Virus record (IMG/VR): IMGVR_UViG_3300036760_000364
Location: 1-60,804 of that record
DNA from: a virus
Taxonomy: Duplodnaviria; Caudoviricetes
Length of the DNA stretch: 60,804 nucleotides
Strand: one strand, 5' to 3'
Position numbers and translations under genes: made by a program. The first letter of the stretch is position 1, and every line of letters begins with the position of its first letter. The notes under the pieces were generated by a model. It was given only the letters and a program-made list of their open reading frames with translations, did no database searches and was not told the DNA's origin. This document shows, piece by piece, positions 1 to 56,059 of the stretch.

Positions 1-492
1 TCCTTTCTTGATTTTTTTGGCTTCTTTCCCTGTTGGAACTTTCTTTGGCATCTCTGACTCCTTTCTTTCTTCAAGCGTTGTTATTAAAGAAAAAATATCC
101 GTCTTTTTACCTTATTATACCCCCCATCCTGTGGTCTTACAGGAGGTGGAAGAGCTTTTTCTTCAACTTCACATCTACCAGGTTTCGGTTTCGATTCTGC
201 CGTTGAGTTTAAAACAGCCTCAATTGCTTTTCCTACCAGTTTTGCACCACAAACCCGCTTTTGGTGAATTAAGTATATACAATACTGTGACAGTACATCA
301 ATACAACGATCATACAGGGTATCCATTTACCTCCTTTCTTCTAGAGCCTTGTTAAATTTCTTCTATTGTTACCGTAACCTTGACAAATTTATCTCCAGGT
401 GTAAGATAATCCTCGTCCTTGACTTGATAAGTTGTCGCCTTGTTGATATCCTTGATGTATTTTCCATGATCGGCATCAAAGTACGAGCCGCA
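1..492. repeat. Terminal direct repeat, copy A (circular assembly overlap)
   Basis: Matches 60332-60804; identical at both ends, divergent in the middle. Confidence 0.95.
84..326 (-). CDS. Hypothetical protein (allele A)
   Basis: AAGGAGG RBS; near-identical allele at 60438-60638. Confidence 0.75.
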   Translation of the reverse strand: MDTLYDRCIDVLSQYCIYLIHQKRVCGAKLVGKAIEAVLNSTAESKPKPGRCEVEEKALPPPVRPQDGGYNKVKRRIFFL

Positions 493-537
493 TTTCTTGT
501 GAGTCTTGTCGCATTGCTTAATCACATACGATGGCAT
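352..537 (-). CDS. Hypothetical protein
   Basis: GGAGG RBS; fits the packed minus-strand operon. Confidence 0.75.
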   Translation of the reverse strand: MPSYVIKQCDKTHKKCGSYFDADHGKYIKDINKATTYQVKDEDYLTPGDKFVKVTVTIEEI

Positions 538-609
538 TGTTTCACCTCCCTTGCTGCCAAATTTGCTAGATTCTATTGAGCTCCCTATTCCCTCCTTTCA
601 ATTTATTAT

Positions 610-1413
610 TTACTGTACTGCCGCTGCTGTCTTCACCTGTTTCTCAGCCCATTTATGAATCTTCTCAAACACAGCCCCAAAGTCCTGTGGCTCATATTGA
701 TTCAGAGCATCCCCAAAAACATGTCCTGCATACAACCTCCCGGTGTTCTGAGTCAACCATACATATTCACTTGGTTGATTCGCTTTCATCTGGCGTGTTC
801 CACTCCTAAAAGCGCACTGAAACATTCCCCCGAGGGCAGTCTTGAGATTCCCCACTACATCCGGCAACATCATCTTGAGTTGGGCTGACTCATTCTCAAC
901 GGTACGTTCGTGGCAATTCAGGATTAAGGTACACGGGAGACTTTTCAACCTCGCAATGAAGTATTGGAAAGAATATCTCTGTGTAGTGAAATCGTTATTT
1001 CCCATGTCTCCGACCTGGGGGATCGTTCCGGGTTTTCCATGCAAGAATAAAACCTGGTTCATAATAAGCTTGAGTAACTCAGTTGTACTGTCAAGAGCAA
1101 TCCAATCAATTTTCCATTCGGGGGTCTTTGTGTCTGAGAACCATACATAACCGGACTTTTTGGTGTTTACAATCATCTGCTCAACTGTATTCTGAGCCTG
1201 CCTGAAAGCAAGAGGAGCTTTGATGTCGATGTCGGTATAGGTGTCGATCATGATGTTACTGCAACCCGTAAGAGGTTGTACCTTGCCATCAAAATCAAAC
1301 ACATATCCCTGTCCAGGAAGTGTACGAAGGGCGGTGGTTTTACCCGTGAAGGGAGCTCCCAGCACTAAAACCTTGATGTTTTGAGTCACTTCGATATCAA
1401 CGGCACTTTTCAT
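610..1413 (-). CDS. AAA_24 / Sak4-like P-loop ATPase (recombinase)
   Basis: Walker A GAPFTGKT, FDFDG, Walker B IALDSTT, LNCHE motif; near a PD-(D/E)XK nuclease and (across the junction) an SSB-like gene. Confidence 0.8.
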   Translation of the reverse strand: MKSAVDIEVTQNIKVLVLGAPFTGKTTALRTLPGQGYVFDFDGKVQPLTGCSNIMIDTYTDIDIKAPLAFRQAQNTVEQMIVNTKKSGYVWFSDTKTPEWKIDWIALDSTTELLKLIMNQVLFLHGKPGTIPQVGDMGNNDFTTQRYSFQYFIARLKSLPCTLILNCHERTVENESAQLKMMLPDVVGNLKTALGGMFQCAFRSGTRQMKANQPSEYVWLTQNTGRLYAGHVFGDALNQYEPQDFGAVFEKIHKWAEKQVKTAAAVQ

Positions 1414-2155
1414 GTATGCCTTCCTCCGTTTTTGTAAGAGGGTCTAATAATCCCTTGACACCATGCAGGTTAGCCCCACTTAGGTAAGCATCATATAGGT
1501 TGGCCTGATGCAGATTAGCATTGCTCAGGTCTGCTCCACACAGATCGGCTTTGTTTAAGTCGGCCTTGCTTAGATTGGCATTGCTCAGATTAGCATTGCT
1601 CAAGTCAGCATCACACAAATCGACCCTACTCAAGTCAGCATTGCGCAGGTTAGCATTGCTCAAACTAACATTACTCAAGTCGGCATCACTTAAATTAGCA
1701 TCACTCAAGTCAGCATTGCTCAAATCGGCCTTCCACAAGCCGGCCCCACTCAAATCAGCCCTACTTAAATTAGCATTATTCAGGTCGGCCTGGTACAAAT
1801 TAGCTTCGTTCAAATTGGCCCCACATAGATCAACCTTGCTCAGATTAGTATTACTCAGGTCTGCATTGCTCAGATTAGCTACATTCAGATTAGCATCATG
1901 CAAGTCAGCATTACTCAGATCGGCCTTACTCAGATTAGCCCCACGTAGGCAAACATTACGCAGATTAGCCCTGTGCAAGTTAGCGGCGTGGAGATAGGCA
2001 TTACGCAGGGAGGCATTAGCCAGGTCAGCCTCACGCAAATTAACATCGTGTAGGTCGGCCCAGTCCAGGTTAGCCCCACGCAAATCAGCACGTTTCCCTC
2101 CTGGGCTGTTATTGAGCCAAGCTTCATGCCGGGCAAGCACGTCTTTTGTGTTCAT
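1397..2155 (-). CDS. Pentapeptide-repeat protein
   Basis: About 40 A(D/N)Lxx repeats; N-terminus MNTKDVLARHEAWL with GGAGG RBS (ORF is open to 2218). Confidence 0.93.
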   Translation of the reverse strand: MNTKDVLARHEAWLNNSPGGKRADLRGANLDWADLHDVNLREADLANASLRNAYLHAANLHRANLRNVCLRGANLSKADLSNADLHDANLNVANLSNADLSNTNLSKVDLCGANLNEANLYQADLNNANLSRADLSGAGLWKADLSNADLSDANLSDADLSNVSLSNANLRNADLSRVDLCDADLSNANLSNANLSKADLNKADLCGADLSNANLHQANLYDAYLSGANLHGVKGLLDPLTKTEEGIHEKCR

Positions 2156-2214
2156 TTCTCCTCCATCTCTTCTGAACTTTAGCCTCCCTTCATTTATCGT
2201 CATCAGCATTGCCT

Positions 2215-2457
2215 TCACTCCCTCCTCTTCATTGGTAACTTACCTTCAGGATCCAAAGACAGGCCAAAATCGGGATTTATACTGTGATATAACCCAATTT
2301 CTCCATTAGGATATATACTCAACAAGCTCCCTAAAGGTAGTCGATCTCCATTTATATCGACTGCTTCTAAGTCAATGTGATTTTTGTATTCTATCAACCT
2401 TAAATACACGTCTTGTTCTTTAGATTTACTAAACCCACCAAAAATACCTTTTATCAC
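2215..2457 (-). CDS. Hypothetical protein
   Basis: Start/stop overlaps with neighbours; RBS. Confidence 0.7.
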   Translation of the reverse strand: MIKGIFGGFSKSKEQDVYLRLIEYKNHIDLEAVDINGDRLPLGSLLSIYPNGEIGLYHSINPDFGLSLDPEGKLPMKRRE

Positions 2458-2624
2458 TTTACTTCACCTCCCCCTTTCTTGCCGATCTCATCTACCGCAT
2501 GGTAGGCCTTCTGATTCACACATACCTGATATCCCTTATCCCACTGCACAATCCCATACAGGACAGCGTTGAGCAATAACGACAACACAAGGGCGAAAAT
2601 TAACAGAATAATTGAGGGTTTCAT
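2454..2624 (-). CDS. Small membrane protein
   Basis: ATGA-coupled start MKPSIILLIF; hydrophobic helix. Confidence 0.65.
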   Translation of the reverse strand: MKPSIILLIFALVLSLLLNAVLYGIVQWDKGYQVCVNQKAYHAVDEIGKKGGGEVK

Positions 2625-3478
2625 GCTTTCTTCTTCATTACCTCCTTCCACGGTTCCCACACCCTTACAAAGTAATCCCCACTCTGTTTTGCATAAGCCA
2701 GTGTCTCCTCAAGACTTTGATACGGTACTTCACATAAGGGTTTATACGGGCATGCCGAATTGAATGCCGTACATTCATTAGTGAACATGAGCCACTCATT
2801 TGATTCCCGTGCTTGACGAATCCCTTTCACGGAGGCCCTAACCCACTTCTTCCATTCGTCTATTTCCCATTCCCCTCGTGTAGTCAAAAATCTCGTGTAT
2901 TCCGTACGCCAGCCCGACTTGAGCTTCTTCCCTACGTGAATCGCATCTACAACGAGGCCCCAGGCATTCTCGTAAAGTTCTCTCAACAGGTAAATATACC
3001 CGGTATATTGATGCTTTGGCTGTACGGTTTTACCATAGTTACTCAGATACAATGAAGTAGTTTTATGGTCAAGGGCGGTTATGCCATATGCCCAGTTTAC
3101 CACTTTATCAAGCAGCCCAAAAAACTCGAAGTCCCCAAAGTCAACAAGCAATCCTTTCTCAACGCCAAGGACTTCAGTGAAAGGAGAAATACTGCCGTTG
3201 TATTCTTTGTAATAACCTCGAATTATGGCCTCGGCATTTTCAAGAGTGCGTTTCTCTTCATCGAGATCAGTCGGCACGAGGGACTTGAAAGCCGCAATAG
3301 CCTCATCAACTGTTCCGCCGGTGAAAAACACGTCTCCTGCCCGATGGATTCCCCTGCCAAATGTCGGAGCCGCCTGGGACTTCGGACTTACAAGCTGGTG
3401 CTCATATTCGAAGAAATATTTCCGTGGGCACTGCTCAAGGAAGCAGGCTAACATGGAGTTGTCGTAGCGTTCGGTCAT
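2621..3478 (-). CDS. PD-(D/E)XK (Cas4/RecB-like) exonuclease
   Basis: CPRKYFF, FGRGIH, GLLDKV, DHKTT, QYTGY, C-terminal C..C..C cluster; start placed at MTERY (ORF is open to 3583). Confidence 0.88.
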   Translation of the reverse strand: MTERYDNSMLACFLEQCPRKYFFEYEHQLVSPKSQAAPTFGRGIHRAGDVFFTGGTVDEAIAAFKSLVPTDLDEEKRTLENAEAIIRGYYKEYNGSISPFTEVLGVEKGLLVDFGDFEFFGLLDKVVNWAYGITALDHKTTSLYLSNYGKTVQPKHQYTGYIYLLRELYENAWGLVVDAIHVGKKLKSGWRTEYTRFLTTRGEWEIDEWKKWVRASVKGIRQARESNEWLMFTNECTAFNSACPYKPLCEVPYQSLEETLAYAKQSGDYFVRVWEPWKEVMKKKA

Positions 3479-3503
3479 CTGGCCAAAATCTCCTTTGCCT
3501 CTC

Positions 3504-3728
3504 TCAATTTTCTGTCCTCCGGGGGCTGAATACCTTATCAAACGCCTCAAACATTTGTTTTCGATCCTTGGCATAAAATTCATTTACAACAGGCGATGTG
3601 CAATCATCTTGAGAACTTCTTATCGATTGGTGTAAATAATGCCACATTACGACTGCCTCGAAATACGATTCAAGGGTTATCGCAATCGGCTGGAACGTCT
3701 GTGGTGGTAAATTTAGTCTTACTTTCAT
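3504..3728 (-). CDS. Hypothetical protein
   Basis: GGAGG RBS; coupled to upstream gene. Confidence 0.65.
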   Translation of the reverse strand: MKVRLNLPPQTFQPIAITLESYFEAVVMWHYLHQSIRSSQDDCTSPVVNEFYAKDRKQMFEAFDKVFSPRRTEN

Positions 3729-3964
3729 TTTGTCACCTCCTCTCCAAAATCACATTGAGTTTGAAGTATTTGAAGTACATACTCTGCTCTTTCTCGTGTA
3801 CCTCTACAATTAGTAAGAAAGTACGATGAACCCATCTCCCAAAAACGGGATGAATCGACAAGGTCTTGAAATTCATAGCAGCGTTTAAAGTGAACACCTC
3901 TAATTAAAACCTCTCTTCTTACGCCATATTTGCCATCCCTGAATTTAACTAAGACAGCTTTCAT
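3725..3964 (-). CDS. Hypothetical protein
   Basis: AAGGAG RBS; coupled stop/start. Confidence 0.7.
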   Translation of the reverse strand: MKAVLVKFRDGKYGVRREVLIRGVHFKRCYEFQDLVDSSRFWEMGSSYFLTNCRGTRERAEYVLQILQTQCDFGEEVTK

Positions 3965-4071
3965 AAGAGCTCCTTTCTCTGCTTAATATCTAATCTGGTA
4001 TCTAATTTATCTAACGTGTTATCTAATTTTTCTGCACCCGGAACCTGTCTTCAATTTCAATGCACCGTGCA

Positions 4072-4272
4072 TTATGCGTCCCGCTTTTTTGGCACTTTTA
4101 TCTTTTTAACCTTCTGGTATAATGCTCTTAATGCCCCGAGATCATTATAAATAGTGCCCTTTCTATCCACAACATACTTTCTCTCGTCTTGATAGGTTGC
4201 AACAACCCTGTGTAACCGATTAAATTCCTCTCTGGCAGCCCGCCGAAGCGCTCTGGCACGTTTACCTTTCAT
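4072..4272 (-). CDS. Small basic hypothetical protein
   Basis: MKGKRARALRRAA N-terminus of a type seen in small phage proteins. Confidence 0.65.
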   Translation of the reverse strand: MKGKRARALRRAAREEFNRLHRVVATYQDERKYVVDRKGTIYNDLGALRALYQKVKKIKVPKKRDA

Positions 4273-4393
4273 TTAAGTTATGTTTATCTTTCATTTAAGT
4301 TTTCCCCTAGTGACCCAAGCCATTGCTATACAGAAAGACTATGGCCCTCAAACAACTGAAACAAAGCAAAATAAAGGCAATGAACAAAGGAAC

Positions 4394-4486
4394 ATCTAAC
4401 AACCGCATCGAAGCGACACGGTATAAACCCATTTTCTTTTTCATTTTAGTTTCCTTGCCCTGTGCGCCTCATTTGCTGCGTTGTGC
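4394..4486 (+). mobile_element. Integron attC-like recombination site (93 bp)
   Basis: R'' ATCTAAC, 5-nt spacer, L'' CATCGAAG ... L' CCTCATT, 6-nt spacer, R' GTTGTGC; arms pair with two extrahelical bases. Confidence 0.72.
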
Positions 4487-4575
4487 ATAAATAATAAAAA
4501 ATAAATTGAAATCCATAACGGCATTAAACCCAATGCGAATAGCCAAAATAGAAGGAAAACTTGATCAATTGACAT
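4441..4575 (-). CDS. 44-aa membrane peptide overlapping the attC site
   Basis: AAGGA RBS; MSIDQVFLLFWLFALGLMPLWISIYFLLFMHNAANEAHRARKLK. Confidence 0.5.
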   Translation of the reverse strand: MSIDQVFLLFWLFALGLMPLWISIYFLLFMHNAANEAHRARKLK

Positions 4576-4637
4576 AAAAAATCCTTTCTACTGTTATATT
4601 CACCCCCATTGTTCAGCCATTGCCTTTGCGATTTCAA

Positions 4638-4832
4638 TTAGTGTCCTTTTTCCAGATGCGCCGGATGCACCCACGTTGCAAGGTTGGTCGAATCTTGTGG
4701 TGTCATCCACGAGGATTGAGTTGCTTTAAGCATCAACTCATTGATCCCCTCCAGTTTGGCCTGTGTAACCAGCAAGTCAAGCTCAGTTTGGGTCATCATC
4801 AAGTATCCAAGGAGTTTAATCATTCTTTTCAT
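4638..4832 (-). CDS. Hypothetical protein
   Basis: ORF in the early operon. Confidence 0.55.
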   Translation of the reverse strand: MKRMIKLLGYLMMTQTELDLLVTQAKLEGINELMLKATQSSWMTPQDSTNLATWVHPAHLEKGH

Positions 4833-4850
4833 CCTGTGAAACCATACCGA

Positions 4851-5057
4851 TTATAGTTTTAACAGCTTTGCACACTTTGTCAGGCAATCTTCATTAAATT
4901 CAATCGTTGGCTGCAACCTCTCTAAAAGCAAGCAGAGTAAAATATCCTTTAAACCTGCGTTCACAAGCCGTCCATTCGGTAAGCGAACTGCGTATCCAAA
5001 GTCAGCCTTCTTGCTTTCTTCCAGCGAAACATCAAAATTTTTCAATTTAACCTCCAA
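4851..5057 (-). CDS. Hypothetical protein
   Basis: ORF in the early operon. Confidence 0.6.
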   Translation of the reverse strand: MEVKLKNFDVSLEESKKADFGYAVRLPNGRLVNAGLKDILLCLLLERLQPTIEFNEDCLTKCAKLLKL

Positions 5058-5373
5058 GACCCGCTTCCATTAAAAAATTGTCGTATTCAACCAGATAGTT
5101 ATTCCAGAGCATTATCTTTAGTGCCTGTCTGTCGTATTCAACCAGATATTCCAGAACATTATCTTTAGTGAGTTTTACAGGATTATCAGAAGTGCCCAAG
5201 TTTAGTGCCCGTCTGCTGAAAGGATATGATATAGATCGGGAATCCGCCAAAACCGGCAGAAAGGCTGAAACAGGCACAAGCGGCTTTACAGGCATCAGCC
5301 TTTCGATTCTTATAATTGCTGGAGCCGAACAGCACAAAAGAATATCTTTTAAAAATGAACGACGAGAAATCAC
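5047..5373 (-). CDS. Twin-arginine-like N-terminus fused to a capsid-protein-like fragment
   Basis: SRRSFLK motif; NLGTSDNPVKLTKDNVL matches the MCP segment NLGTVASPLTLTKSNVL. Confidence 0.7.
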   Translation of the reverse strand: MISRRSFLKDILLCCSAPAIIRIERLMPVKPLVPVSAFLPVLADSRSISYPFSRRALNLGTSDNPVKLTKDNVLEYLVEYDRQALKIMLWNNYLVEYDNFLMEAGLGG

Positions 5374-5442
5374 GCCTAAAACCTCCTTCGGAATGCCCTT
5401 ATCATAACACCCTCTTCAAGCGATGTCAAATCTGGCCAATCG

Positions 5443-5757
5443 TTATTTTTCAATAACATCCGTATTACCACACATTTTGCAAATTTTTCCTTCAACATGG
5501 TTTTTAATGAAGGGGCAGGGCAGTAACGTCCGACCTGGATTATCAACCCTTCCTGTGATCTGCAACCTGCAGCCATTCTCGCAACTCCACTCTTTTTGAG
5601 AACAGTCCAAACATGGCGGCGGTAAGAATCCAACCCCACGGTATTTTGGCGACCACACTTCATACGTTACAAACAATCGGAAAGCCTGACATTCCAGGCC
5701 CGATACCTCACATACCTTAATCGAGGGGCAATCATCGCAAGGATGGATATCACGCAT
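5443..5757 (-). CDS. Cys-rich hypothetical protein
   Basis: Several CxxC motifs; GGTGG RBS before MRDIHPC. Confidence 0.6.
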   Translation of the reverse strand: MRDIHPCDDCPSIKVCEVSGLECQAFRLFVTYEVWSPKYRGVGFLPPPCLDCSQKEWSCENGCRLQITGRVDNPGRTLLPCPFIKNHVEGKICKMCGNTDVIEK

Positions 5758-5962
5758 ATTCCACCTGTCTTTCCCATGAATCACACACTTTGTCCATATA
5801 CACTGCAGTCTGGAACTTTAAACAAAGTACATCTGGCAATTCCTGAAAAGGTATCAAACCACAATATTGACATGTCCCGCAGCATATGGCATCTTGATAG
5901 TGGTGCGCATTCATATTTCTAAATTGGCTTATGTCCCACGCTCTAAACTTTAATTCTTTCAT
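5750..5962 (-). CDS. Hypothetical protein with YopX-like N-terminus and Cys motifs
   Basis: MKELKFRAWD followed by CCGTCQYC. Confidence 0.6.
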   Translation of the reverse strand: MKELKFRAWDISQFRNMNAHHYQDAICCGTCQYCGLIPFQELPDVLCLKFQTAVYMDKVCDSWERQVEYA

Positions 5963-5966
5963 TTTT

Positions 5967-6152
5967 TTAGTCCTTAACCTCTAAGTCAACCGGTCGGTCA
6001 TCTATAAAATCCTCAAGCATCCCATTGTCATTCTCATCCTGAGTCCACAAAATAAGACGATGAGGTAAATTAATCGACACATAAATATTATCCAACCGCC
6101 AGTCTCCTTGTTCGAGTATTTCTCCTGTGGGTTTATAGCGAATTTCAATCAT
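5967..6152 (-). CDS. Hypothetical protein
   Basis: ATGA-coupled ORF. Confidence 0.6.
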   Translation of the reverse strand: MIEIRYKPTGEILEQGDWRLDNIYVSINLPHRLILWTQDENDNGMLEDFIDDRPVDLEVKD

Positions 6153-6556
6153 TTGGAAAACGCCTTTTGGCGTATCTCGGGATTTTCGTAAATGTTGCCG
6201 ATAACCTTTATATTATCATCAAGACCTGTAAAATCATATTTACCCTTGTGGAGAAAACGAAATGCTCCCCTTTCAAATCTAACCTCGCAGTTTATTTTTT
6301 CATTTATAGAAACAATATCTCCCTCCCAAATCTCCCTCCGAAACCGGTCAGTCAACCCGGTGAATTGCATAAGATCGCATTCCGAAGGATCAATCGACTG
6401 TCTGTTATCTCCATAAAAGTCTCTTTTATACTCCTCTCCTACTGGTAGCATACCAATGTATCCTTGTCCTATCCCATATTTCATTCCCCATCTGACATCA
6501 AACCACCACATAGACTTTGTAACTCTGTTCCACGCCCGAAACGTTAATTCTCTCAT
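6149..6556 (-). CDS. YopX-family protein
   Basis: FRAW, LMQFTGLTD, EIWEGDIV, KVIGNIYENPE. Confidence 0.92.
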   Translation of the reverse strand: MRELTFRAWNRVTKSMWWFDVRWGMKYGIGQGYIGMLPVGEEYKRDFYGDNRQSIDPSECDLMQFTGLTDRFRREIWEGDIVSINEKINCEVRFERGAFRFLHKGKYDFTGLDDNIKVIGNIYENPEIRQKAFSK

Positions 6557-6577
6557 TTTTAGTCTTTCTCTCCTCAT

Positions 6578-6817
6578 CTAATTATTTTTGGTGTGCATCT
6601 TCCACATCCATTCTCGATGCACCCATTCTCGATGGTCAAGCGTCTGCTCAAGCAGTTCGAGATATCTCTTACAAGCATCACAAAGAAGCGCAACCCCCGG
6701 TTCCATCTCGACATCCTTCCATACGGGAGTCTCCCCAAGCGGATCAATACGGCCCTTGCACCGAGAGCACTGGTAAGTTGATCTCCAGGGCCACAACATA
6801 GCGAGTTCAAGTTTCAT
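6578..6817 (-). CDS. Zn-finger-like hypothetical protein
   Basis: CSRC...CDAC; AAGGAGG RBS. Confidence 0.65.
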   Translation of the reverse strand: MKLELAMLWPWRSTYQCSRCKGRIDPLGETPVWKDVEMEPGVALLCDACKRYLELLEQTLDHREWVHREWMWKMHTKNN

Positions 6818-6851
6818 AGTTAATCAGTCCTCCTTCAAGCCCTGCCTACCA

Positions 6852-7037
6852 TTATTTCTGATTGTCATTACAGCCCTTCTCCTTACGAGTTATAACCCAT
6901 CCATGTCCATTACACAACGGGCAGGCTTCAATCTCTACAAGTTTCCATGAGGGATTCTTACCTAAGAATGCCTCGAACATTGTCCCATCCGCTACACGAA
7001 GTTGAATGATTCCTTTATCATCAATCAGCCCTTTCAT
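6852..7037 (-). CDS. Hypothetical protein
   Basis: CPLCNGHG motif; coupled start. Confidence 0.6.
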   Translation of the reverse strand: MKGLIDDKGIIQLRVADGTMFEAFLGKNPSWKLVEIEACPLCNGHGWVITRKEKGCNDNQK

Positions 7038-7390
7038 TTGGCTTTGCTACCTTTCGCAAAGGGGCACATCCTGTTCAACATACTTTGAGGGCGGATACAT
7101 CTGTATTTTGTTGTCATTCCCCGTTCAAGCTTCCCTTGGCGTATTGCTTCCACCTGTTTATTCCAAAACTCACACACTTCTGGATGATCTGAATTCGGTA
7201 TCGTTACCCAGCATTCTACCACATCCCCAATCTCACATATTCCTAGGGCAGCCTGCAAAGCCACAAACGTCATCCCTTTGTGCATATCCACCAGTACTTG
7301 AATCGGAATTGTCTTCTGCTCGGAAATCCGGTAATCCGTAATAACCCCGTTCAAATCACTAGCATCCGTTGGTTCAATGCGTTTTCTCAT
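7034..7390 (-). CDS. Hypothetical protein
   Basis: AAGGAG RBS. Confidence 0.7.
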   Translation of the reverse strand: MRKRIEPTDASDLNGVITDYRISEQKTIPIQVLVDMHKGMTFVALQAALGICEIGDVVECWVTIPNSDHPEVCEFWNKQVEAIRQGKLERGMTTKYRCIRPQSMLNRMCPFAKGSKAK

Positions 7391-7418
7391 TTTTTAGTTC
7401 TCCTTTTTTTGCACATTC

Positions 7419-7889
7419 CTATCTCCATACCTTGTTAGCCAGTACTTTTTTCATTTTGCACATCCCCATCTCCACACCCTGACTGAAAAGTACTCCCAGA
7501 GTTCCATCGATTTTATCGATGTTCTTCTCAGGGATATCCAGTAGCACCCGAATGGTTTCTTTTGCATCCGCAATCAATTTCTGACGATTATCATCCAATT
7601 TCTGACGATTATCAGACGTTATGGCTTCTTTCGATTCATCCATTTCAGGCGTATTTCTTCTGGCCAGCCATGCCTCAACGCTTTCTGGGCTGCCATGACA
7701 TATCGATGGCACATTATCGTAGACATACGCACATATATCAAGAAAGTCTTGCCGATTCTCATAATCTGCCCGTCCTATTGCACCCATCAAATCATTTGAC
7801 AAAACCGCCTTGAGGAAACCTCCTGGGGAGATATGATAAGTAACATATCTGTCAAGTGCATCTTTGATATCTTCTCTCATTTCTATCAT
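7419..7889 (-). CDS. Conserved phage hypothetical protein
   Basis: LDRYV...PGGFLKAVLSNDL...AIGRAD pattern recalled from phage proteins; 21-bp tandem duplication (DNRQKL x2). Confidence 0.75.
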   Translation of the reverse strand: MIEMREDIKDALDRYVTYHISPGGFLKAVLSNDLMGAIGRADYENRQDFLDICAYVYDNVPSICHGSPESVEAWLARRNTPEMDESKEAITSDNRQKLDDNRQKLIADAKETIRVLLDIPEKNIDKIDGTLGVLFSQGVEMGMCKMKKVLANKVWR

Positions 7890-8165
7890 CTATTTTCCTT
7901 TTTCTTCTTTCTTTACCTTAATAAACAATATTCTCAACTCCCGTGATAGCCGTGAATGCTTACTCACGGAACTCCTCAACCAGGCATCGCTCCCTGGGCG
8001 ACACTTGCTTTTATGTCGCCAGAGGCCCTGTCCTACATATTGCCCGGCTCCCTTTATGGCCTTTCCGCAGACATAGCAACTCTGCTGACGGTGCTGACGA
8101 TTTTTTACCGATGGCAGCTTCTCTGAATCTTTATTACATCTCATTTTAGTTATTTTCTTTTCCAT
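7890..8165 (-). CDS. Zn-finger-like hypothetical protein
   Basis: CYVC...H...C; true start may be 8144. Confidence 0.6.
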   Translation of the reverse strand: MEKKITKMRCNKDSEKLPSVKNRQHRQQSCYVCGKAIKGAGQYVGQGLWRHKSKCRPGSDAWLRSSVSKHSRLSRELRILFIKVKKEEKGK

Positions 8166-8329
8166 TCCACATTAATCCGATATATTTTTCCTGTTTCCGG
8201 GTCTTCGACATCAAATATCGTTGCTACCGATTCAGGATCCTGTTGGATCCTCAGTGTTTTCTCTGCCGCTTGCTGTGGAGAGTCTGCGAGGATACTTATA
8301 TCCCATTTTACTCAATATTCCACGCTCAT
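8150..8329 (-). pseudogene. 59-codon phage ORF interrupted by in-frame TGA at codon 6
   Basis: GGAGG RBS, MSVEY*VKWDISILADSPQQAAEKTLRIQQDPESVATIFDV...; fills an otherwise empty gap. Confidence 0.65.
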
Positions 8330-8363
8330 TTTATAACACCTCCATTTCCCTTCTCCTTTATCC

Positions 8364-8987
8364 TCAATGCATACCTCCGTTTGCCAGAAGTTCAATAAAG
8401 TAGAATTTTTCGACTTTCCGCAAATCGATGATTTCAGGATTGTTGACGATGAAGCGCCTCAAATCCTTTTCTTTGATAAAATAGATGTCCCCGCCCTGTT
8501 TTTCCGTGCGTCCCGTTCCTCTTTTTTCCGCCTTGAGCAATCCTTGTTTGATCTTATTCGTAACCCAGTGCGAATCCACTCCGAAAAATTCCGCTACTGT
8601 CATGGCCGACATGCCATCCATATTCTTCAGAAATCTCATCCTCTTTCTCTTTAGGTGTATTCCCGCAATGCTTCTTTGATAGCCAGCCGCACTCAATTTT
8701 TTCTTAATGACCTCCACGGACAGTTGCGCATTATGTTCCAGGATGCTTAGTTCCTTTTCATCCCATGCCGGTTCTTTTTTCAGCGGGGTATATGCGCCGA
8801 TCGCTGCGGCACGTCTGGAGATTACATGTCGCGGCACACCGAAGGCTAGAGCCGTTTTCTTGACGAGACCTTGCCGTGCGATGTTCTCCCGATAGAGTTT
8901 AAAAATAAGGGCATCCATCGCAGGAGTGAAATTTACCTTTTGTGCCTTTTGTCTCTGCTTCGCTCTTGTTTGCTCTTGCCTGTTCAC
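8364..8987 (-). CDS. Multi-HTH DNA-binding protein
   Basis: FTPAMDALI and WDEKELSIL Myb-like starts; excisionase-like C-terminal HTH (MTVAEFFGVDSHWV...GLLKA). Confidence 0.65.
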   Translation of the reverse strand: MNRQEQTRAKQRQKAQKVNFTPAMDALIFKLYRENIARQGLVKKTALAFGVPRHVISRRAAAIGAYTPLKKEPAWDEKELSILEHNAQLSVEVIKKKLSAAGYQRSIAGIHLKRKRMRFLKNMDGMSAMTVAEFFGVDSHWVTNKIKQGLLKAEKRGTGRTEKQGGDIYFIKEKDLRRFIVNNPEIIDLRKVEKFYFIELLANGGMH

Positions 8988-9026
8988 CCTTCACTTTCCT
9001 CCTTTACGGCCTCTTCGATATTCCCC

Positions 9027-9254
9027 TTATTCCTCACCCTCGGTAATAAAGATATCATAGACATTGTCAAAGATATCCTCGATCTCCCCACCAAACCAGC
9101 TATTTAGTGTCTTTATAGCCTCCTGACGTGTAGTGTATTTCCCGACATTTATCCAGGAGTCTTTATCCTTGTCAAATGGATTCGGTAAATCCAACCAGAA
9201 AATCTTTTTCTTCTTTATGTTCTTTTTCATGCGCCCGTCCACCTCCTTTCTCAT
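9027..9254 (-). CDS. Hypothetical protein
   Basis: ORF with RBS (start may be 9230). Confidence 0.6.
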   Translation of the reverse strand: MRKEVDGRMKKNIKKKKIFWLDLPNPFDKDKDSWINVGKYTTRQEAIKTLNSWFGGEIEDIFDNVYDIFITEGEE

Positions 9255-11956: not shown

Positions 11957-12252
11957 CTTATACCTCCCAACTCACAACAACACCCAATTTGTTCACTGAT
12001 AAAATAATCTGCATTATCCATAAATACTTTTCTTCTCTCTTTACCCATAAGACAACCTGGTAAACTATGCCAGGAAAATATCTTATCTCTTAAATCAGGG
12101 TATAAATTTATTAACCTTACCCTTTCAGTTTCATTATGAACAAGCAAATACCCTTTAAACTTCTTAACCTCCTTTATAATCTCCGTAGTTTTGCCTCCAC
12201 CTCTTGCTGTTATAATATATTTCATTTTATCCTCTTTCTCTTCTTTTTTCAT
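11905..12252 (-). CDS. Small P-loop-like hypothetical protein
   Basis: ARGGGKTT and VFMDNAD motifs. Confidence 0.65.
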   Translation of the reverse strand: MKKEEKEDKMKYIITARGGGKTTEIIKEVKKFKGYLLVHNETERVRLINLYPDLRDKIFSWHSLPGCLMGKERRKVFMDNADYFISEQIGCCCELGGISLNLPEEKPNPTKRKLR

Positions 12253-12337
12253 TTTTTCCTTCCCTTGCGCTGCTGCAGGTTGCGCCTGGTCAAGAGACTG
12301 TCCCCAATTTTTACCCTACCGGGGAAGCGGCTTTTGC

Positions 12338-12360
12338 GGGAGGCGAAGCCTCCCTTTTTT
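12338..12360 (+). terminator. Intrinsic terminator facing against the early operon
   Basis: GGGAGGC-GAA-GCCTCCC followed by T6. Confidence 0.6.
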
Positions 12361-12383
12361 CAATACTACCTCCTTTTAGTTCT

Positions 12384-12593
12384 TTAAATTAAGCTACCTT
12401 TAAACCTTGCAGACATCCCTATTATGCCCGTATAATCACCCAACTTGTAGTTAGGAATATATAACCTCTCTATTATCCCGTTGTCATATTTCCGGTAGGA
12501 CAGGTTTTTATATCGCTTTTTTGCAAATTTCACAAACTTATCCGTTGGGCTGTACACTTCAAGCCCCTTGTATCCTTTATTCATCATTTTCAC
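12384..12593 (-). CDS. Hypothetical protein
   Basis: GGAGG RBS. Confidence 0.6.
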   Translation of the reverse strand: MKMMNKGYKGLEVYSPTDKFVKFAKKRYKNLSYRKYDNGIIERLYIPNYKLGDYTGIIGMSARFKGSLI

Positions 12594-30142: not shown

Positions 30143-31087
30143 ATGCCTGTGGGTAACGCAAGTGGCTATCCAAATTATGCCTATGAGGGATTAAGTAAAC
30201 TTATCCCGATATTGTGGGCTGCGGATGCCCGAGAGAAGTTTTACGCCTCAACGTGTTTACCTGATATAACAAATCAGAACATTTTGGGTGCGGCTGAAAT
30301 TAAGAACATGGGAGACAGAATATGGATCAACACTGTTCCCGATGTTCCGATTAATGACTACGTTAGAGGGGAACTTCTGAACGTAGACTATCTTGAATCC
30401 CCTGCGATTGAAATGACCGTAGATTATGCGAAACAGTTTAATTTTGCTGTTGATGAGATTGACCTCAAACAGGTTAAAATCAAGGACTGGATTTCAAGAT
30501 ACGCTGAAGATGCAAACAAGCAGATGAAGATTCACATCGAGACGAAAGTACTTGCAGGAATCTACGGAGGTGTAGATGCTGCCAATACCGGCTTGACTGC
30601 TGGAAAGATATCGGCGAATATCAATCTTGGTACAGTCGCTTCACCGTTGACTCTTACCAAATCGAACGTCCTCAGCAAAATCATCCAGTGCAGTCAGGTT
30701 CTTGGCGAGCAGAACATTCCCAAAGACGGACAGTGGTGGATGGTAATTCCTGAAGCCATGTCAACCGTTCTTCAGGACTCAGATCTCAAGAACGTCAGTA
30801 TGACTGGAGATTCGTCATCCGTCATGAGAAACAAGGGGCTGCTTGGTGAGATAAGCAGGTTCAAACTCTATGAGAGCAACCTGCTTCCAATGGAATCAGA
30901 CGGGTCGTATCATATTCTATTTGGTCACAGAATGGCAATATGGTTCGTATCCCAGTACACCAAGGTCAAAATGTATGAACCCGAAAGAGGATTCGCTCAG
31001 GCCATGAAGGGACTCAATGTGTATGGTTATGGTGTCCTTCAGCCGACAGCAATGGGGCAGATGGTTGCATCCATCAGCTACTCATAA
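30143..31087 (+). CDS. Major capsid protein (P22-coat-like HK97 fold)
   Basis: IP.LW....EKFY.ST.L..ITN, EIKNMGD.I.I..VP, C-terminal KGLNVYG. Confidence 0.9.
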   Translation: MPVGNASGYPNYAYEGLSKLIPILWAADAREKFYASTCLPDITNQNILGAAEIKNMGDRIWINTVPDVPINDYVRGELLNVDYLESPAIEMTVDYAKQFNFAVDEIDLKQVKIKDWISRYAEDANKQMKIHIETKVLAGIYGGVDAANTGLTAGKISANINLGTVASPLTLTKSNVLSKIIQCSQVLGEQNIPKDGQWWMVIPEAMSTVLQDSDLKNVSMTGDSSSVMRNKGLLGEISRFKLYESNLLPMESDGSYHILFGHRMAIWFVSQYTKVKMYEPERGFAQAMKGLNVYGYGVLQPTAMGQMVASISYS

Positions 31088-51872: not shown

Positions 51873-52643
51873 TCATCCTCGATAGACCTTCCCATTCCAG
51901 ATGGCCCGTCTATTAACTATATCCACATTATACATCGAAAAGAACCCCTCCTTGTCCAGATAAAAAACCCCAAAAGATTGTTGCCATACCGATTTCTGGT
52001 TATACATCCAATCTCTGTCTCGAATACACAAACAGCCAATGCCAAAAGCGGCATGACTGTCGGTAGTTCCATCACGTTTCAGGGTTTCATGTGGGAATCT
52101 TTGTACGCTATGAAAATGGCCATAGACAACCGACCGGCCAATCTGTGCCCACTGTTTTGCGTGATGAATAGATTGATACCCACGTCTGTCTCCGTGATGA
52201 AACATCAACTTGCCCTCGTTATAAAATCTGCCATGTGGAACATTCAAGTCGCAATGCTTAAAATTAACAACCCGCTTTGTTACGTCAATATCAAAGGTTT
52301 CTGCAAGTTCGGCGTGTGCCTCAACATAGCGAATAAGCCTTTCACAGTGATTGCCAGTTAAATGAATAAACTGGCAGTCCTTACCGATGATTGTACGAAA
52401 ATCAGACAGAATGTCTTCAACTCTTTCGATGTCTTTTGTAAGCCGCTTCCCCTCAAGTTTGAGGGGTTTGTTTTTATCGTAGTGATTGATGGATTCAAAC
52501 TCGCTTGTATCCCCAAGATCGATAAGTACGTGGGGTTTTACATCCTGAATGACCTGTTTCAGGATTTCAACTGCGTGCTCATCTTGATAAGGGGCATGTA
52601 GATCCCCAAAAACGATTCCCCGTTTGATGGTTTCTTTGGACAT
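51873..52643 (-). CDS. Calcineurin-like metallophosphoesterase
   Basis: GDLH, LGD, GNH, HHG, GHFH motifs. Confidence 0.9.
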   Translation of the reverse strand: MSKETIKRGIVFGDLHAPYQDEHAVEILKQVIQDVKPHVLIDLGDTSEFESINHYDKNKPLKLEGKRLTKDIERVEDILSDFRTIIGKDCQFIHLTGNHCERLIRYVEAHAELAETFDIDVTKRVVNFKHCDLNVPHGRFYNEGKLMFHHGDRRGYQSIHHAKQWAQIGRSVVYGHFHSVQRFPHETLKRDGTTDSHAAFGIGCLCIRDRDWMYNQKSVWQQSFGVFYLDKEGFFSMYNVDIVNRRAIWNGKVYRG

Positions 52644-52930
52644 TATCTGGCCTCCCGTAGCACTCTCTCATGTTCTTTTAGTTTTTTAAACGCCCTTGTA
52701 TATATCAAAGGGCACTCTACATCTGGTGTTGGGAGTTGTAACGGTGCATTAAAGGTCATAACAGTTAACCAAAGTTTACCCCTGATCAAAATCTTCAATC
52801 TTTCAACAAAGGATAAACCCCAGCAACTAACAACAGTTCCCTCCTTTGATTTAAAAATAGGCGTAGGCGAATCCTCTAATTGGTTTCCCCGAAAAATAAT
52901 GTTTGCCTCCTCAAATTTTATTGGAATCAT
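52643..52930 (-). CDS. Conserved phage hypothetical protein
   Basis: PI.F.EAN...VVSCW.LSF.ERLK.L..GKLWL.V.TF..PLQ. Confidence 0.75.
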   Translation of the reverse strand: MIPIKFEEANIIFRGNQLEDSPTPIFKSKEGTVVSCWGLSFVERLKILIRGKLWLTVMTFNAPLQLPTPDVECPLIYTRAFKKLKEHERVLREAR

Positions 52931-52948
52931 TTTAGTCTCTCTGCTTTC

Positions 52949-53146
52949 TTATTTATAGTCCCAAATGCCCAGCTTTTCATAATGTGCGCTTTTGCCCACA
53001 TAAGTAATTTTAAAGTAGTCTTCAAGCGCATAATTACGTTTCCTATGTTCGTTAATATGTTCGTATAAATCCTTAATAGCTCTTTGATTAGCTTCGAGTG
53101 ACGCATATAATTTGTCAATCGACTCTCTTGCCTGGGCATCTCTCAT
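52949..53146 (-). CDS. Hypothetical coiled-coil protein
   Basis: AGGAGG RBS; ATGA-coupled. Confidence 0.6.
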   Translation of the reverse strand: MRDAQARESIDKLYASLEANQRAIKDLYEHINEHRKRNYALEDYFKITYVGKSAHYEKLGIWDYK

Positions 53147-54312
53147 TTCTCATGTCCTCCTATCCAATGTAACATCTCTCCCTTAACCGTTGTTTCTACT
53201 TGAATCTTCTGCATGGCCAGTAGTGATCTTACTACCTCTTGCGTGTCTCTATAAGACACATCCTGCCAGAACTCCCCACACACCTCACTCAGCAGACAGG
53301 ATTTCTTTGCCTGTATGTATTTCTGCACCCGAGATATTGCATAAGCCAGCTTGTTAAGTCCATAAGCTCCATAAGCCTCCGCCATGTGCTGTTCGAGCTT
53401 TACAAGCCATTTGAGGCCCCGATGCCAGTCTACTTTCTTGATAATATAGTCAATTTCGCCCTTTCCCGACGACCTCGCAAGAGACATCAACATAGCCAAC
53501 TTGACGACATGCGTAGGGATTCGGTCAATATAAGAAGTGAAGTAAGGATGTTGGCGCAGAGAGGATTTTTCAAATTCTCCATTTTCGTACCAGTTAATTA
53601 AGAGCTTCTTGGTCTCGTTATCAAAATGCATCTCGCCCTGGGCGGCATTGATAAGTGCGACCTGTTTTAGAAGTTGTTCTTCCATTAATGGATTGATAAT
53701 AGGAAAAGCCCTCTTGAGGCGTTCCCTGTTACAGACGACATAGATGATTCGGGAGGTCGTACCCGAGCCAATAGCCTCCTTGGGTAGCGTGGAGGCCAAG
53801 ATGTCAGGTTGAATTGCGCCGATCATGGTAAAGTAGACATTCTTCAGATGAACCTCATCCTGGGTGGCGGTGATGTAGTCAAACTTATCACGGCAGTCGA
53901 AGAGTTTGTTGAGATTGTTAAGAAATTCCTTGTCCTGGTCGCCAATAAAGAATTGCCACTCCTCGCTTATCAAGCCCCAGGAACAATGCCGGATGTCCTT
54001 GCCGTCAATCTGGATAACTTTGTGCTTGGCCTCCATTGCATTCCACATCGCACGCAGGGTAGCTTTATCAGGCATCAGATTAACTTCAAGGCCCCGAAGA
54101 AGTTGATTTGCCCGACGAATAACGCTTTTCTTTGTTCCAGGAGGCCCAACAAGAATAAGATAGACGTTCGGATAGATCGAGTCAACTCCCCAGTTAACCC
54201 AGACCTTACGTTCCACTGCGGCACTGATTGTAAAAAGCGCCGTGGCGGTCTGGAAATTCAAGGGGGACTCGACTTCGTGAAGCCAGTCATGGAACAGGTC
54301 TATGAAGTGCAA
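53143..54312 (-). CDS. DUF3987/YfjI-like P-loop protein (putative replicative helicase)
   Basis: ESP..F, IYPNVY.ILVGPPG.KKS, SEE, G..SRIIYV, KLAM. Confidence 0.75.
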   Translation of the reverse strand: MHFIDLFHDWLHEVESPLNFQTATALFTISAAVERKVWVNWGVDSIYPNVYLILVGPPGTKKSVIRRANQLLRGLEVNLMPDKATLRAMWNAMEAKHKVIQIDGKDIRHCSWGLISEEWQFFIGDQDKEFLNNLNKLFDCRDKFDYITATQDEVHLKNVYFTMIGAIQPDILASTLPKEAIGSGTTSRIIYVVCNRERLKRAFPIINPLMEEQLLKQVALINAAQGEMHFDNETKKLLINWYENGEFEKSSLRQHPYFTSYIDRIPTHVVKLAMLMSLARSSGKGEIDYIIKKVDWHRGLKWLVKLEQHMAEAYGAYGLNKLAYAISRVQKYIQAKKSCLLSEVCGEFWQDVSYRDTQEVVRSLLAMQKIQVETTVKGEMLHWIGGHEK

Positions 54313-54338
54313 TTAGTAATCCTTTCTTTCGAAGTGCA

Positions 54339-54560
54339 TTAGGCCCCTATCGCTGGCGGAGTATTCTCCCCGCTTACAGGTTCAAGCTGCCTGGTAACAT
54401 CCAGCCTTACGATGGTCTGGTTATGAGCATCATCATAACGAATCTCTGTCCACCTTGCCTCGACATGTTGCTGTTTCTCAAAGACTCTCACGGCTTCCTC
54501 GATAAGGGGCAACAGGACAATCTCATTGAAGGTTAGAACAAAAGAGCCGCTGGCCATCAT
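54339..54560 (-). CDS. Hypothetical protein
   Basis: Coupled ORF. Confidence 0.6.
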   Translation of the reverse strand: MMASGSFVLTFNEIVLLPLIEEAVRVFEKQQHVEARWTEIRYDDAHNQTIVRLDVTRQLEPVSGENTPPAIGA

Positions 54561-54958
54561 TCCACACTGTCCATTTCCATTTTCATGCCGAGGAGTCCGT
54601 ATCCTGTAAGATCAGAATAAGCATCCTCTCCAAGCGCATACTGGTTGCCAGATGCAATCCGCATCATCTTGTCGAACATCCTGACAAGCACCAAAACATC
54701 TTTGTATTGTTCAACCTTGATACCAGCAGGATAGAGTATACACAAAAAATCCATGCTTTTTGAGAAGGCATCTCCATAAGCCTCATTTTTCTCCTGCACC
54801 AGCTGTCCAACACCCTCAGCGAGTTCGACAAAGGAAAGGGGCTTGATTTCACCCACCGGTTGATCCCCCGGTAAATCGGATATCTTTCCAAACAACGGCT
54901 TTGTATCTTCGGGCTTGAAACCCGAACATTCTTTACTAAACTTGCAGCGTTCGATCAT
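54557..54958 (-). CDS. DUF1599 / Nmad1-like nucleotide-modification-associated protein
   Basis: EKN.AYGD...R..DK..RI...ED...DL.GY.LL. Confidence 0.75.
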   Translation of the reverse strand: MIERCKFSKECSGFKPEDTKPLFGKISDLPGDQPVGEIKPLSFVELAEGVGQLVQEKNEAYGDAFSKSMDFLCILYPAGIKVEQYKDVLVLVRMFDKMMRIASGNQYALGEDAYSDLTGYGLLGMKMEMDSVE

Positions 54959-54980
54959 TTTTTACCTCCTCCTGGCATTA

Positions 54981-55340
54981 TTATTTTGTTACCGCATTTT
55001 GAGCATTCCCACCGGCTTCCACGTATTCTAAATATTCAATCGGTTTGTGCATCTCGGTCATCAAAGCAATCTCCTCTTTTATCCCCTTTGATTCCTCCCA
55101 ACCATCACACAGCACGATAATCATTTTCTCGCATATATCAAGAAAAACCTTATTATATTTCCCCCAAAACGCCCAGTCCAGTGGTAAGCCGTATTGAGCA
55201 ATAGGATGACAATGACTGATTGGAGAATAGACATATTCTCCGGTCTTCATTAGCTCAGAGGCTATTTTATTGGCTAGCTGAAAACGTTTTTCTCGTATCT
55301 CCTTATCAGGATGAGAGTAAGGAATTGCAAGATAAATCAT
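54981..55340 (-). CDS. DUF1937 (nucleoside deoxyribosyltransferase-like) protein
   Basis: MIYLA.PYSHPD...YSPISH.H...GW.ES.G...EI. Confidence 0.85.
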   Translation of the reverse strand: MIYLAIPYSHPDKEIREKRFQLANKIASELMKTGEYVYSPISHCHPIAQYGLPLDWAFWGKYNKVFLDICEKMIIVLCDGWEESKGIKEEIALMTEMHKPIEYLEYVEAGGNAQNAVTK

Positions 55341-55354
55341 TTTGGGGCTCCTTT

Positions 55355-56059
55355 TTAAATTCCATCGCTATACCTAAAAAGCCTTTCTGTTCTTTTATAT
55401 TGGCTGTTCTGGCTGTTCTTGTCAAGTATTGTTTTGTATTCAACCGTTTTTACACACTTAAAATCATCTGGTGCGTTATATTCACTCACGAAAACCACAT
55501 GACCTTCATTTGCTTTATCTCTGCACCATTGAAAAAATTCTGTATGATTAAAAGTATCTTTGTAGGCAGTTGTGCCCTCATAAGGCGGGTCACAATAAAT
55601 AATGCTATTCTTAGGGATTTTCATATCTAAGTAACTTCCACAGATAAACTCAACGCCGTTTAGATTTTTTGCTTGCTTTGTCAGTGCTCTACTACCCACT
55701 TCCGCATAGTTGCGGCCTTCGTTATCTTTGGCGTAACCGCCCCACCATTTACCCCCAAAACTGCACAGAAAACCAACAAAACCAACTAATTCATCGTCGT
55801 ATTTATCTTGGTTTTGTTTAATATCGTAGTACATTTCCTTGTTAACTTCAGTTGGTGGTATCCAACCCTTTTGTAACGACTTGAGTAAAGCGATAAGGTA
55901 TTTGTGACTATCGTTTCCAATCCTTTTGCCTTGCACTTTGTCTATCATATTTGCGCCACCTACAAAGGGTTCCACCCAAAACATTTCTGGCTTTCTTTCA
56001 GCAAGCATAACTGGCAAAATGTATTTTGCTATTTTGTTTTTACTTCCCATGTATCGCAT
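55355..56059 (-). CDS. DNA N6-adenine methyltransferase (Dam/D12-like)
   Basis: YMGSK, EPFVGG.N, IYCDPPY, FVSEY. Confidence 0.9.
   Translation of the reverse strand: MRYMGSKNKIAKYILPVMLAERKPEMFWVEPFVGGANMIDKVQGKRIGNDSHKYLIALLKSLQKGWIPPTEVNKEMYYDIKQNQDKYDDELVGFVGFLCSFGGKWWGGYAKDNEGRNYAEVGSRALTKQAKNLNGVEFICGSYLDMKIPKNSIIYCDPPYEGTTAYKDTFNHTEFFQWCRDKANEGHVVFVSEYNAPDDFKCVKTVEYKTILDKNSQNSQYKRTERLFRYSDGI

Follow-up and report, generated by a model that had tools for sequence, protein, structure and literature searches.

A small phage gene with a twin-arginine-like leader and a capsid-like fragment, and its relatives with variable C-termini

Here we report on ORF108, a small gene of a virus (Duplodnaviria; Caudoviricetes) represented by the IMG/VR record IMGVR_UViG_3300036760_000364. 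The window that was analysed is the complete record, 60,804 nucleotides (60.8 kb) classed as linear; a search of 50,697 phage records gave no near relative of it. To judge from its sequence, ORF108 belongs, as a diverged member, to a so far undescribed family of small phage proteins, in which an N-terminal leader with a pair of arginines (the RR leader) is followed by C-termini of many kinds. The C-terminal module of ORF108 itself is recognisable by profile comparison as 26-31 amino acids of the A-domain of a major capsid protein (MCP) of the phrog_267 type, namely the short strand and the helix that come after the spine helix. Similarity searches likewise identify the modules of at least three lineages as MCP fragments, from three families that are unrelated in sequence, and the module of one lineage as a tail-collar fragment. 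We tentatively favour, as possible and short of probable, an explanation in which the family would join the conserved leader, coupled to a conserved host machine, to an exchangeable module that mimics a structural protein.

The family comprises 65 sequences with 44 distinct leaders. The leader is N-terminal, about 27-30 amino acids long, and has the consensus RR[SG]F[LI][TK]G[LIM]x[SA]LxAAPAIVRV[EG]S[LI]MPVK. Membership was defined by an N-terminal RR, a spacer of 11 residues, APA, seven residues and MPxK, all of which are found in ORF108, and the residues that are invariant in the alignments A3 and A4 (R4, R5, A17, P18, A19, M27, P28 and K30) are likewise complete in it. The spacer between RR and APA has 11 residues in 38 of the 44 distinct leaders, and in 48 of 64 members the RR is two to four residues away from the predicted start (residues 4-5 in ORF108). 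A phmmer search of 1.84 billion representatives that was blind to the motif recovered P0002, a variant of ORF108, together with P0093 (E 2.6e-10), P0094 (5.6e-7), P0095 (4.5e-6), P0096 (3e-5), P0098 (6.1e-4) and P0099 (8.5e-4); the last six are 85-126 amino acids long, have the first ~30 residues in common and differ beyond them. P0097 (779 amino acids, with seven repeated stretches) was dropped as a repeat artefact. Word-based searches with ORF108 returned only an identical copy and P0002, a first metagenome scan with ORF108 peptides gave no match, and longer relatives were sought among 136 candidates and none was found.

Pattern searches extended the family. A peptide-pattern scan of IMG/VR found eight leader loci (the first match there, L003, lies antisense within a head-gene region and was rejected as noise), and a degenerate DNA pattern that covered APA...MPxK only found 10 IMG/VR contigs (eight known, two new), 45 metagenome stretches and, in 596 Gb of genomes from bacteria and archaea, one match. 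In the members found in this way, APA and MPxK are invariant partly by construction; the RR was not in the pattern, and it was present at the expected distance upstream in 44 of the 45 metagenome stretches, with KR in the other one. The sole bacterial-genome match (L092:252-521) lies on a 43.6-kb contig of a Salinibacterium metagenome-assembled genome and may belong to a prophage or a mis-binned phage contig. Identities at the three codon positions of the leader in seven members are 0.60, 0.78 and 0.30, with an amino-acid identity of 55%, which indicates conservation of the leader at the protein and not the DNA level; the G + C content of the 56 leader loci ranges from 33 to 65%. No family in Pfam, PHROG or NCBIfam matched the leader at threshold. 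There was one weak match to phrog_11563 (unknown function; E 0.0055 for L099), and no cultured phage among the 50,697 records matched L099, a member that consists mostly of leader. A derivation of the leader from the MCP (residues 4-29 against MCP residues 207-223) was rejected, since 191-240 of 2000 shuffles scored as well.

The capsid-like module of ORF108 had been pointed out in an initial annotation made from the sequence alone, which described an early gene with a capsid-protein fragment behind a twin-arginine-like leader. Its coordinates and counts were all correct, among them the match of NLGTSDNPVKLTKDNVL (5202-5152) to residues 161-177 of the resident MCP (from 30623) at 11 of 17 positions. 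In BLASTP, ORF108 and the resident MCP share 11 of 23 residues (47.8%; 26.6 bits; E 8e-5 as a single comparison). When all 1093 six-frame open reading frames (ORFs) of the window were compared with each other, the same pair scored 26.9 bits (E 0.056) and pairs involving non-coding frames 26.6 and 26.2 bits, so that the pairwise match alone is not decisive. A score within this noise, a low-confidence structure model of ORF108 (predicted local distance difference test, pLDDT, 50) and the lack of any PHROG, Pfam or NCBIfam family at threshold (or of any PHROG capsid family at E up to 1) would be expected if the similarity were due to chance in a spurious or non-coding ORF. The profile comparisons contradict this. 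A hidden Markov model (HMM) built from 84 MCP relatives (alignment A2) and run over the 1093 ORFs gave 441 bits for the MCP, 14.0 bits for ORF108 in second place (E 0.001) and 4.2 bits for the next ORF, a lead of 10 bits for ORF108 over all remaining ORFs, and among 500 shuffled versions of ORF108 none exceeded 2.7-3.5 bits with the MCP profiles. The score changed little when the MCP of the window (14.2 bits) or relatives of at least 59% identity (13.8 bits) were left out of the profile. The hhalign alignment of ORF108 with the MCP profile has 26 columns (probability 78%, E 1.7e-5), and a six-frame search of five related 60-67-kb phage genomes gave matches solely in MCP genes, at the homologous place, in two of the five. 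Given also matches at the homologous place in many MCPs, relatives with the same leader, the longer MCP-like stretch of P0093 and the reading frame kept in P0002, chance similarity is excluded by the data, and we give it next to no credence.

The AlphaFold model of the resident MCP (pLDDT 73) has the HK97 fold, and a Foldseek search with it returned the capsid of phage Che8 (8e16; E 1.4e-15) and many T7-like capsids and encapsulins. The segment that is homologous to ORF108 and P0093 (30617-30721, residues 159-193) consists in this model of a loop, a short strand (169-171) and a helix (176-189), and follows a long helix of 28 residues (116-143); going by HK97 topology, we assign it to the beginning of the A-domain rather than to the spine helix. 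ORF108 does not hold a complete HK97 fold, as it aligns only to profile positions 152-177 (to 185 without the duplicate described below) and has 108 amino acids against 314. PF25209 is listed as a precomputed match in a protein database for the resident MCP and most of its relatives, and the Pfam scan made here returned no PF25209 at E up to 1. The homology to capsid proteins, the place of the segment on the MCP and the presence of an RR leader joined to a structural fragment in homologues, all anticipated by the initial annotation, were thus borne out; its view of the fragment as an epitope of this phage's own MCP was not. In phmmer, ORF108 scored 22.7 bits against P0023, which is 43% identical to the resident MCP, and 10.7 bits against the resident MCP, and in tblastn the module is 66.7% identical over 24 amino acids to the MCPs of L006 and L004. 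At the DNA level, module and resident MCP agree at 34 of 78 positions. Since other MCPs are closer and the DNA differs to this extent, the fragment is not a copy of the phage's own epitope, nor is the resident MCP its source.

Among the 60 members with at least 25 residues after MPVK, the C-termini form 31 clusters, four of which are recognisable (three capsid, one tail-collar). The tests for structural similarity consisted of searches of nine members against their own records, comparisons with 167 MCPs of three families, and PHROG searches at E up to 1. The first cluster (ORF108, P0002, P0093 and P0095) carries the A-domain piece of phrog_267-type MCPs, which is clearest in P0093. Its hhalign alignment to the MCP profile extends over 52 columns (97%, E 8.4e-11), it scores 40.9 bits and it reaches phrog_267 at E 0.016. 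All eight tblastn matches of P0093 in the 50,697 phage records coincide with annotated capsid genes and involve query residues 44-91 only, not the leader, and P0093 matches 73 of 80 fetched MCP loci as well as the MCP of the window. A weak match of P0095 falls at the right place in the MCP (E 0.0044, probability 8%), P0096 gives a borderline match to MCPs (E 0.004), and P0094 shows no MCP similarity. A profile of the sub-family matches the MCP profile with 95% (E 3.8e-8). ORF108 and P0093 are 40% identical overall, and both keep the MCP-conserved residues LG(T)..P..LTK.N..EY; their retention despite the divergence suggests selection on the module.

Two further clusters carry N-terminal pieces of other MCPs, in each case from the phage itself. 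In the second cluster (L088, L109, L110, L126 and L145), residues 41-82 of L088 are 60% identical to residues 10-45 of its own 348-amino-acid major head protein (E 3e-14), with phrog_9953 matched at E 4.6e-10 and the search of its own 63-kb genome (G007) giving E 2e-11. This 63-kb phage has two leader genes, one with the fragment of its own MCP and the other (L104:655-969; G007 12154-12465) with an unrelated 74-amino-acid tail. The third cluster (L091 and L132) carries the start of a P22-like coat protein: residues 52-103 of L091 match residues 1-58 of its own 406-amino-acid coat protein (E 8e-11 and 5.5e-9), which resembles the solved 'putative coat proteins' 8skg (E 1.4e-9) and 6mnt (E 2.9e-8), and L132 is 68.6% identical to the same coat protein over 51 amino acids (E 4.8e-20). 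The fourth cluster (L084, L112 and L146) carries the tail-collar fragment, with 20.9 bits for Pfam Collar (below the cut-off of 24) and phrog_523 at E 1.3e-7 for L146, for which 15 of 16 PHROG matches are tail proteins. The leader gene with the tail-collar-like module at L084:5001-5366 lies inside the head genes, in the interval between portal and MCP, whereas other members lie in early or replication regions. The MCP families of the first three clusters show no significant pairwise similarity (best cross-pair E 0.74).

In the nine own-record searches, a second match outside leader genes was obtained for three members, every one in the MCP gene. MCP genes make up 1.6-2.7% of those three genomes, and by our own arithmetic three such matches would arise by chance with a probability of ~7e-6. 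Likewise, all 102 tblastn matches of the C-terminal modules outside leader genes lie in MCP ORFs. The coordinates of ORF108 and of the features around it are given in Table 1.

Table 1. Coordinates of ORF108, its parts and signals, and the resident major capsid protein in the window.
Feature	Position	Strand	Description
ORF108	5047-5373	minus	GTG start, 108 codons and stop; member of the RR-leader family
Leader of ORF108	5284-5373	minus	residues 1-30, MISRRSFLKDILLCCSAPAIIRIERLMPVK; contains the family invariants
MCP-like module of ORF108	5131-5208	minus	residues 56-81, ALNLGTSDNPVKLTKDNVLEYLVEYD; homologous to MCP profile positions 152-177
Imperfect tandem duplication	5079-5170	minus	copies at 5130-5170 and 5079-5123; found by pairwise repeat search
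Shine-Dalgarno sequence	5382-5389	minus	GAAGGAGG, 8 nt 5' of the GTG of ORF108; read from the sequence
Sigma-70-like promoter candidate	5401-5429	minus	TTGACA, 17 nt, TATGAT; TG before the -10; 11/12 consensus positions
Downstream ORF	4851-5057	minus	68 amino acids as listed; GGAGG and TTG start overlap the last codons of ORF108
Resident MCP	30143-31087	plus	314 amino acids, HK97 fold; phrog_267 at E 2e-37

Behind its intact leader, ORF108 has a shortened and disrupted capsid module. The 51-nucleotide tandem duplication described in the initial annotation is real, with 5079-5097 identical to 5130-5148 (19/19, spacing 51) and 5097-5123 similar to 5144-5170 (93%, spacing 47). Because of a 4-nt indel, the first half of one copy is read in a different frame (LTKDNVLE becomes ALKIMLWNN), and a third partial copy (CAGACrGGCACTAAA) lies at 5201-5215. 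Tandem Repeats Finder reported no array in 4500-6000; the duplication is visible only by pairwise repeat search. Removal of one 51-nt period (residues 81-97) had been said to extend the match to 32 amino acids; it brought a modest gain (17.2 bits, an increase of 3, over 31 columns) and no clear match of that length. A short internal tandem repeat (NRAMLE / NRAILE) is also found in P0098, at residues of about 60-75, approximately where ORF108 has its duplication. Two DNA runs from sediment metagenomes, one of which may be the source, contain the ORF108 stretch, and no RNA run with it was found; a second sediment metagenome has the variant of the P0002 type. P0002 has 104 amino acids and is 96% identical to ORF108 in the alignment (93% by the BLASTP of the search). 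It differs by V29I, V73A, E103Q, one synonymous change and an in-frame deletion of 12 nt (4 amino acids), and keeps the reading frame and the duplication. The module of ORF108 ends soon after the helix, unlike that of P0093. These properties fit a fast-evolving or decaying module behind a preserved leader, and ORF108 itself may be a weakened or decaying copy.

Such behaviour would be expected of unconstrained sequence, and it leads to the view that only the leader has a function, for example as an exported or membrane-inserted peptide, or as one that blocks or uses the twin-arginine (Tat) machinery, while the C-termini are neutral filler acquired by illegitimate recombination and the capsid and tail pieces are fossils. 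The truncation, duplication and partial frame shift of the ORF108 module, and the variant indel in the same place, are in line with this, as are the strong protein-level conservation of the leader in front of 31 unrelated clusters among 60 members and the small number of clusters that are recognisable as fragments; about one in six random captures of coding DNA would be in sense orientation and in frame, which is near the observed 4 of 31. What such a view does not readily account for is that all three own-genome matches fall in the MCP gene, less than 3% of each genome, that the fragments stem from three unrelated MCP families, and that ORF108 and P0093 have retained the MCP-conserved residues at 40% overall identity. 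We regard filler behind a functional leader as rather unlikely.

The RR leader looks like a Tat signal in several respects. The N-terminus of ORF108 reads MISRRSFLK, and the SRRSFLK noted in the initial annotation (residues 3-9) is the sole occurrence of [ST]RRxFLK in 72,337 six-frame residues of the window (0.014 expected). As in Tat signals, the N-terminal motif is followed by ~12 mostly uncharged residues and then by basic residues; in ORF108 the stretch after FLK opens with D10 and extends only to I21, before R22. Of the 38 distinct leaders of standard length, 37 have the RR, and the look-alikes that a language model returned for two members were Tat-signal clusters (0.78-0.89), which are leads only. 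None of the scores reaches a Tat cut-off, neither for ORF108 (12.0 bits against 22.7 for PF10518 in Pfam; no NCBIfam match at E up to 10) nor for its relatives (at best 12.9 against 22.7 in Pfam, and 12.5 against 16.7 for TIGR01409). Unlike Tat signals, moreover, the leader has a stretch, APAIVRVxSLMPVK, that is far more conserved than is usual in signal peptides, it has no conserved A-x-A after MPVK (a small residue follows in 22 of 51 distinct sequences), and its pattern was matched only once in 596 Gb of bacterial genomes. If the leader were a true Tat signal, the module would be exported from the cytoplasm.

This last point also bears on the proposal, made in the initial annotation, that an early-made fragment serves as a decoy and occupies or misdirects a host sensor of new capsid protein, in the manner of CapRel-SJ46 or Lit. 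Capsid fragments do recur behind the same leader, and ORF108 has its own strong promoter-like site within the block of replication genes; a Tat-like leader, however, would take the fragment out of the cytoplasm, where CapRel and Lit act. The fragment of L088 is 60% identical to its own MCP, in a comparison that covered its own MCP only, whereas the fragment of ORF108 is nearer to the MCPs of other phages than to its own by both score and identity (22.7 against 10.7 bits; 66.7% against 47.8%). Defence proteins directly bind newly made MCP, as stated for the MCP and CapRel-SJ46 (PMC9712102). A fragment able to bind a sensor should nevertheless act as its trigger. The Gol peptide of T4 gp23 acts with Lit, and plasmid-borne Gol peptide activates Lit, which counts against a decoy. 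The triggers of CapRel-SJ46 and Lit resemble the modules in that the capsid protein or a short stretch of it alone engages a host protein, and differ from them in that the stretches lie inside a full MCP and activate defence. A decoy for a capsid sensor is possible but unsupported, and we consider it improbable; the earlier interpretation as a whole is partly supported.

Returning to a structural mimic behind a conserved leader, which we tentatively favour, the module would mimic an interface-forming piece of a virion protein and bind the normal partner of that piece, be it neighbouring capsid subunits, the scaffold or a host protein that recognises capsid protein. In whole capsid proteins, N-arms and A-domains presumably form contacts with neighbours or scaffold, and a mimic that competes for contacts is favoured because the modules correspond to such pieces. 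The invariant leader would couple the mimic to something that is conserved across very different hosts, with the Tat or membrane-targeting machinery as the likeliest candidate. A conserved host machine or membrane appears a more likely partner than a phage protein because the leader is near-identical despite unrelated capsids and a 30-point spread in G + C content. The net effect would most likely be competitive (dominant-negative) interference with capsid-protein interactions, for example those of co-infecting relatives. A more elaborate form of this idea, which we judge unlikely, is that phages of many hosts use the invariant leader and copied interface fragments (capsid N-arm, capsid A-domain, tail collar) to grab the capsid or scaffold of a competitor, or a host sensor, and, by hitchhiking, drag or tether the partner to a host machine such as the Tat translocon. 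The family would then be a re-targetable weapon against phages or host defence, and ORF108 a worn example of it.

A number of findings weigh against an exchangeable mimic. By the tests that were run, 27 of the 31 C-terminal clusters show no similarity to structural proteins, so that mimicry may not be a principle of the whole family. Six of the nine own-record searches were empty; of the records concerned, four have a completeness of only 32-81%. The module of ORF108 is short, lacks the conserved stretch LDEQNIP..R.W.V.P that is kept in P0093 and holds a frame-shifted duplicate. The structure model of ORF108 is of low confidence, as mentioned above; codon usage in its N-terminal half does not resemble that of genes (-0.12 bits per codon); and the differences between ORF108 and P0002, of which only four substitutions are known, show no purifying selection on the C-terminal half. 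Finally, export is hard to reconcile with an action on capsid assembly or on sensors, both of which are cytoplasmic.

Known systems offer partial parallels. Internal proteins of the T4 type, which carry a capsid targeting sequence, likewise have a short conserved N-terminal leader, hypervariable bodies and a location in plastic genome regions. Their leader sequence differs, no prohead protease was recognised among the 53 ORFs of the window that were scanned against PHROGs, and a capsid target specific to the phage is made less likely by the conservation of the RR leader among phages whose capsid and scaffold proteins are unrelated. The capsid homologue Ccm of SaPIbov5 and the Gag-derived restriction factor Fv1 also derive from capsid genes and are thought to interfere with the capsid assembly of a related virus. 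They are, however, homologues of the whole fold that reside in a satellite or a host, whereas the RR-leader family consists of fragments of 25-60 amino acids with a leader, in complete phages that possess a full MCP. The family is thus partly like Tat signals, T4 internal proteins and capsid-derived interference factors, and by the tests run a member of none of them. In the literature searched, no description of the RR-leader family or of a phage gene encoding a capsid-fragment decoy was found; the matches to 'decoy' were mass-spectrometry or nucleotide decoys.

Two minus-strand blocks of the window (610-8987 and 51873-60319) carry genes of replication and recombination (DNA polymerase, primase, methyltransferase, Sak4-like protein, PD-(D/E)XK exonuclease, YopX), and the virion genes form its plus-strand block. 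ORF108 is located among small minus-strand ORFs, with the exonuclease on one side and YopX on the other. Its promoter-like site ranks best of 11 such sites in 3500-9200, by consensus match only; both hexamers are identical in the variant contig (sequencing run X2), and spacer positions 5413 and 5416 are changed. The designation as an early gene comes solely from the position among replication and recombination genes and from this promoter-like site, and would be a prediction from both. In codon usage, the frame of ORF108 scores best of the six frames, yet weakly (0.079 bits per codon overall), with 0.2-0.46 bits per codon for segments of the C-terminal half.

The downstream ORF has no family match, and its translational coupling to ORF108 is possible because its GGAGG and TTG start overlap the end of ORF108. 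The upstream neighbour (5443-5784, minus strand) encodes a cysteine-rich protein of 113 amino acids with several CxxC pairs and no family match, its sole faint similarity being to the C-terminal region of PqqE (E 0.15); its 14 differences in the variant contig far outnumber those of ORF108. In seven contigs with five C-terminal clusters (L087:5255-5653, L108, L118, L123, L124, L128 and L141), a phrog_824 protein of unknown function (132-170 amino acids) is encoded directly 3' of the leader gene. The window lacks this neighbour, for which no relative with a solved structure was found. Elsewhere in the replication block, 1397-2218 (minus strand) encodes a repeat-rich protein of 273 amino acids with strong PHROG matches of unknown function (phrog_7713, E 1e-55) and weak matches to tail-fibre families. 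The ends of the window (1-580 and 60326-60804) are imperfect direct repeats with six-frame ORFs that are 63-98% identical (e.g. 94.7% over 75 amino acids), and may represent terminal repeats that have diverged, or an assembly that joined two variants.

This study adds a widespread, strongly conserved and unannotated leader peptide to the small proteins of phages, and this holds even if the C-termini are scrap, in which case the family would also be a clear case of new small genes assembled from parts of older genes. Should the modules be functional mimics, the family would represent a new principle, in which one fixed leader is combined with swappable structural fragments that evolved independently from at least three unrelated capsid families. 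Such a principle would bear on the competition of phages inside the cell and on their handling of capsid-sensing defence systems, and would provide a natural template for designed peptides that interfere with phage assembly.

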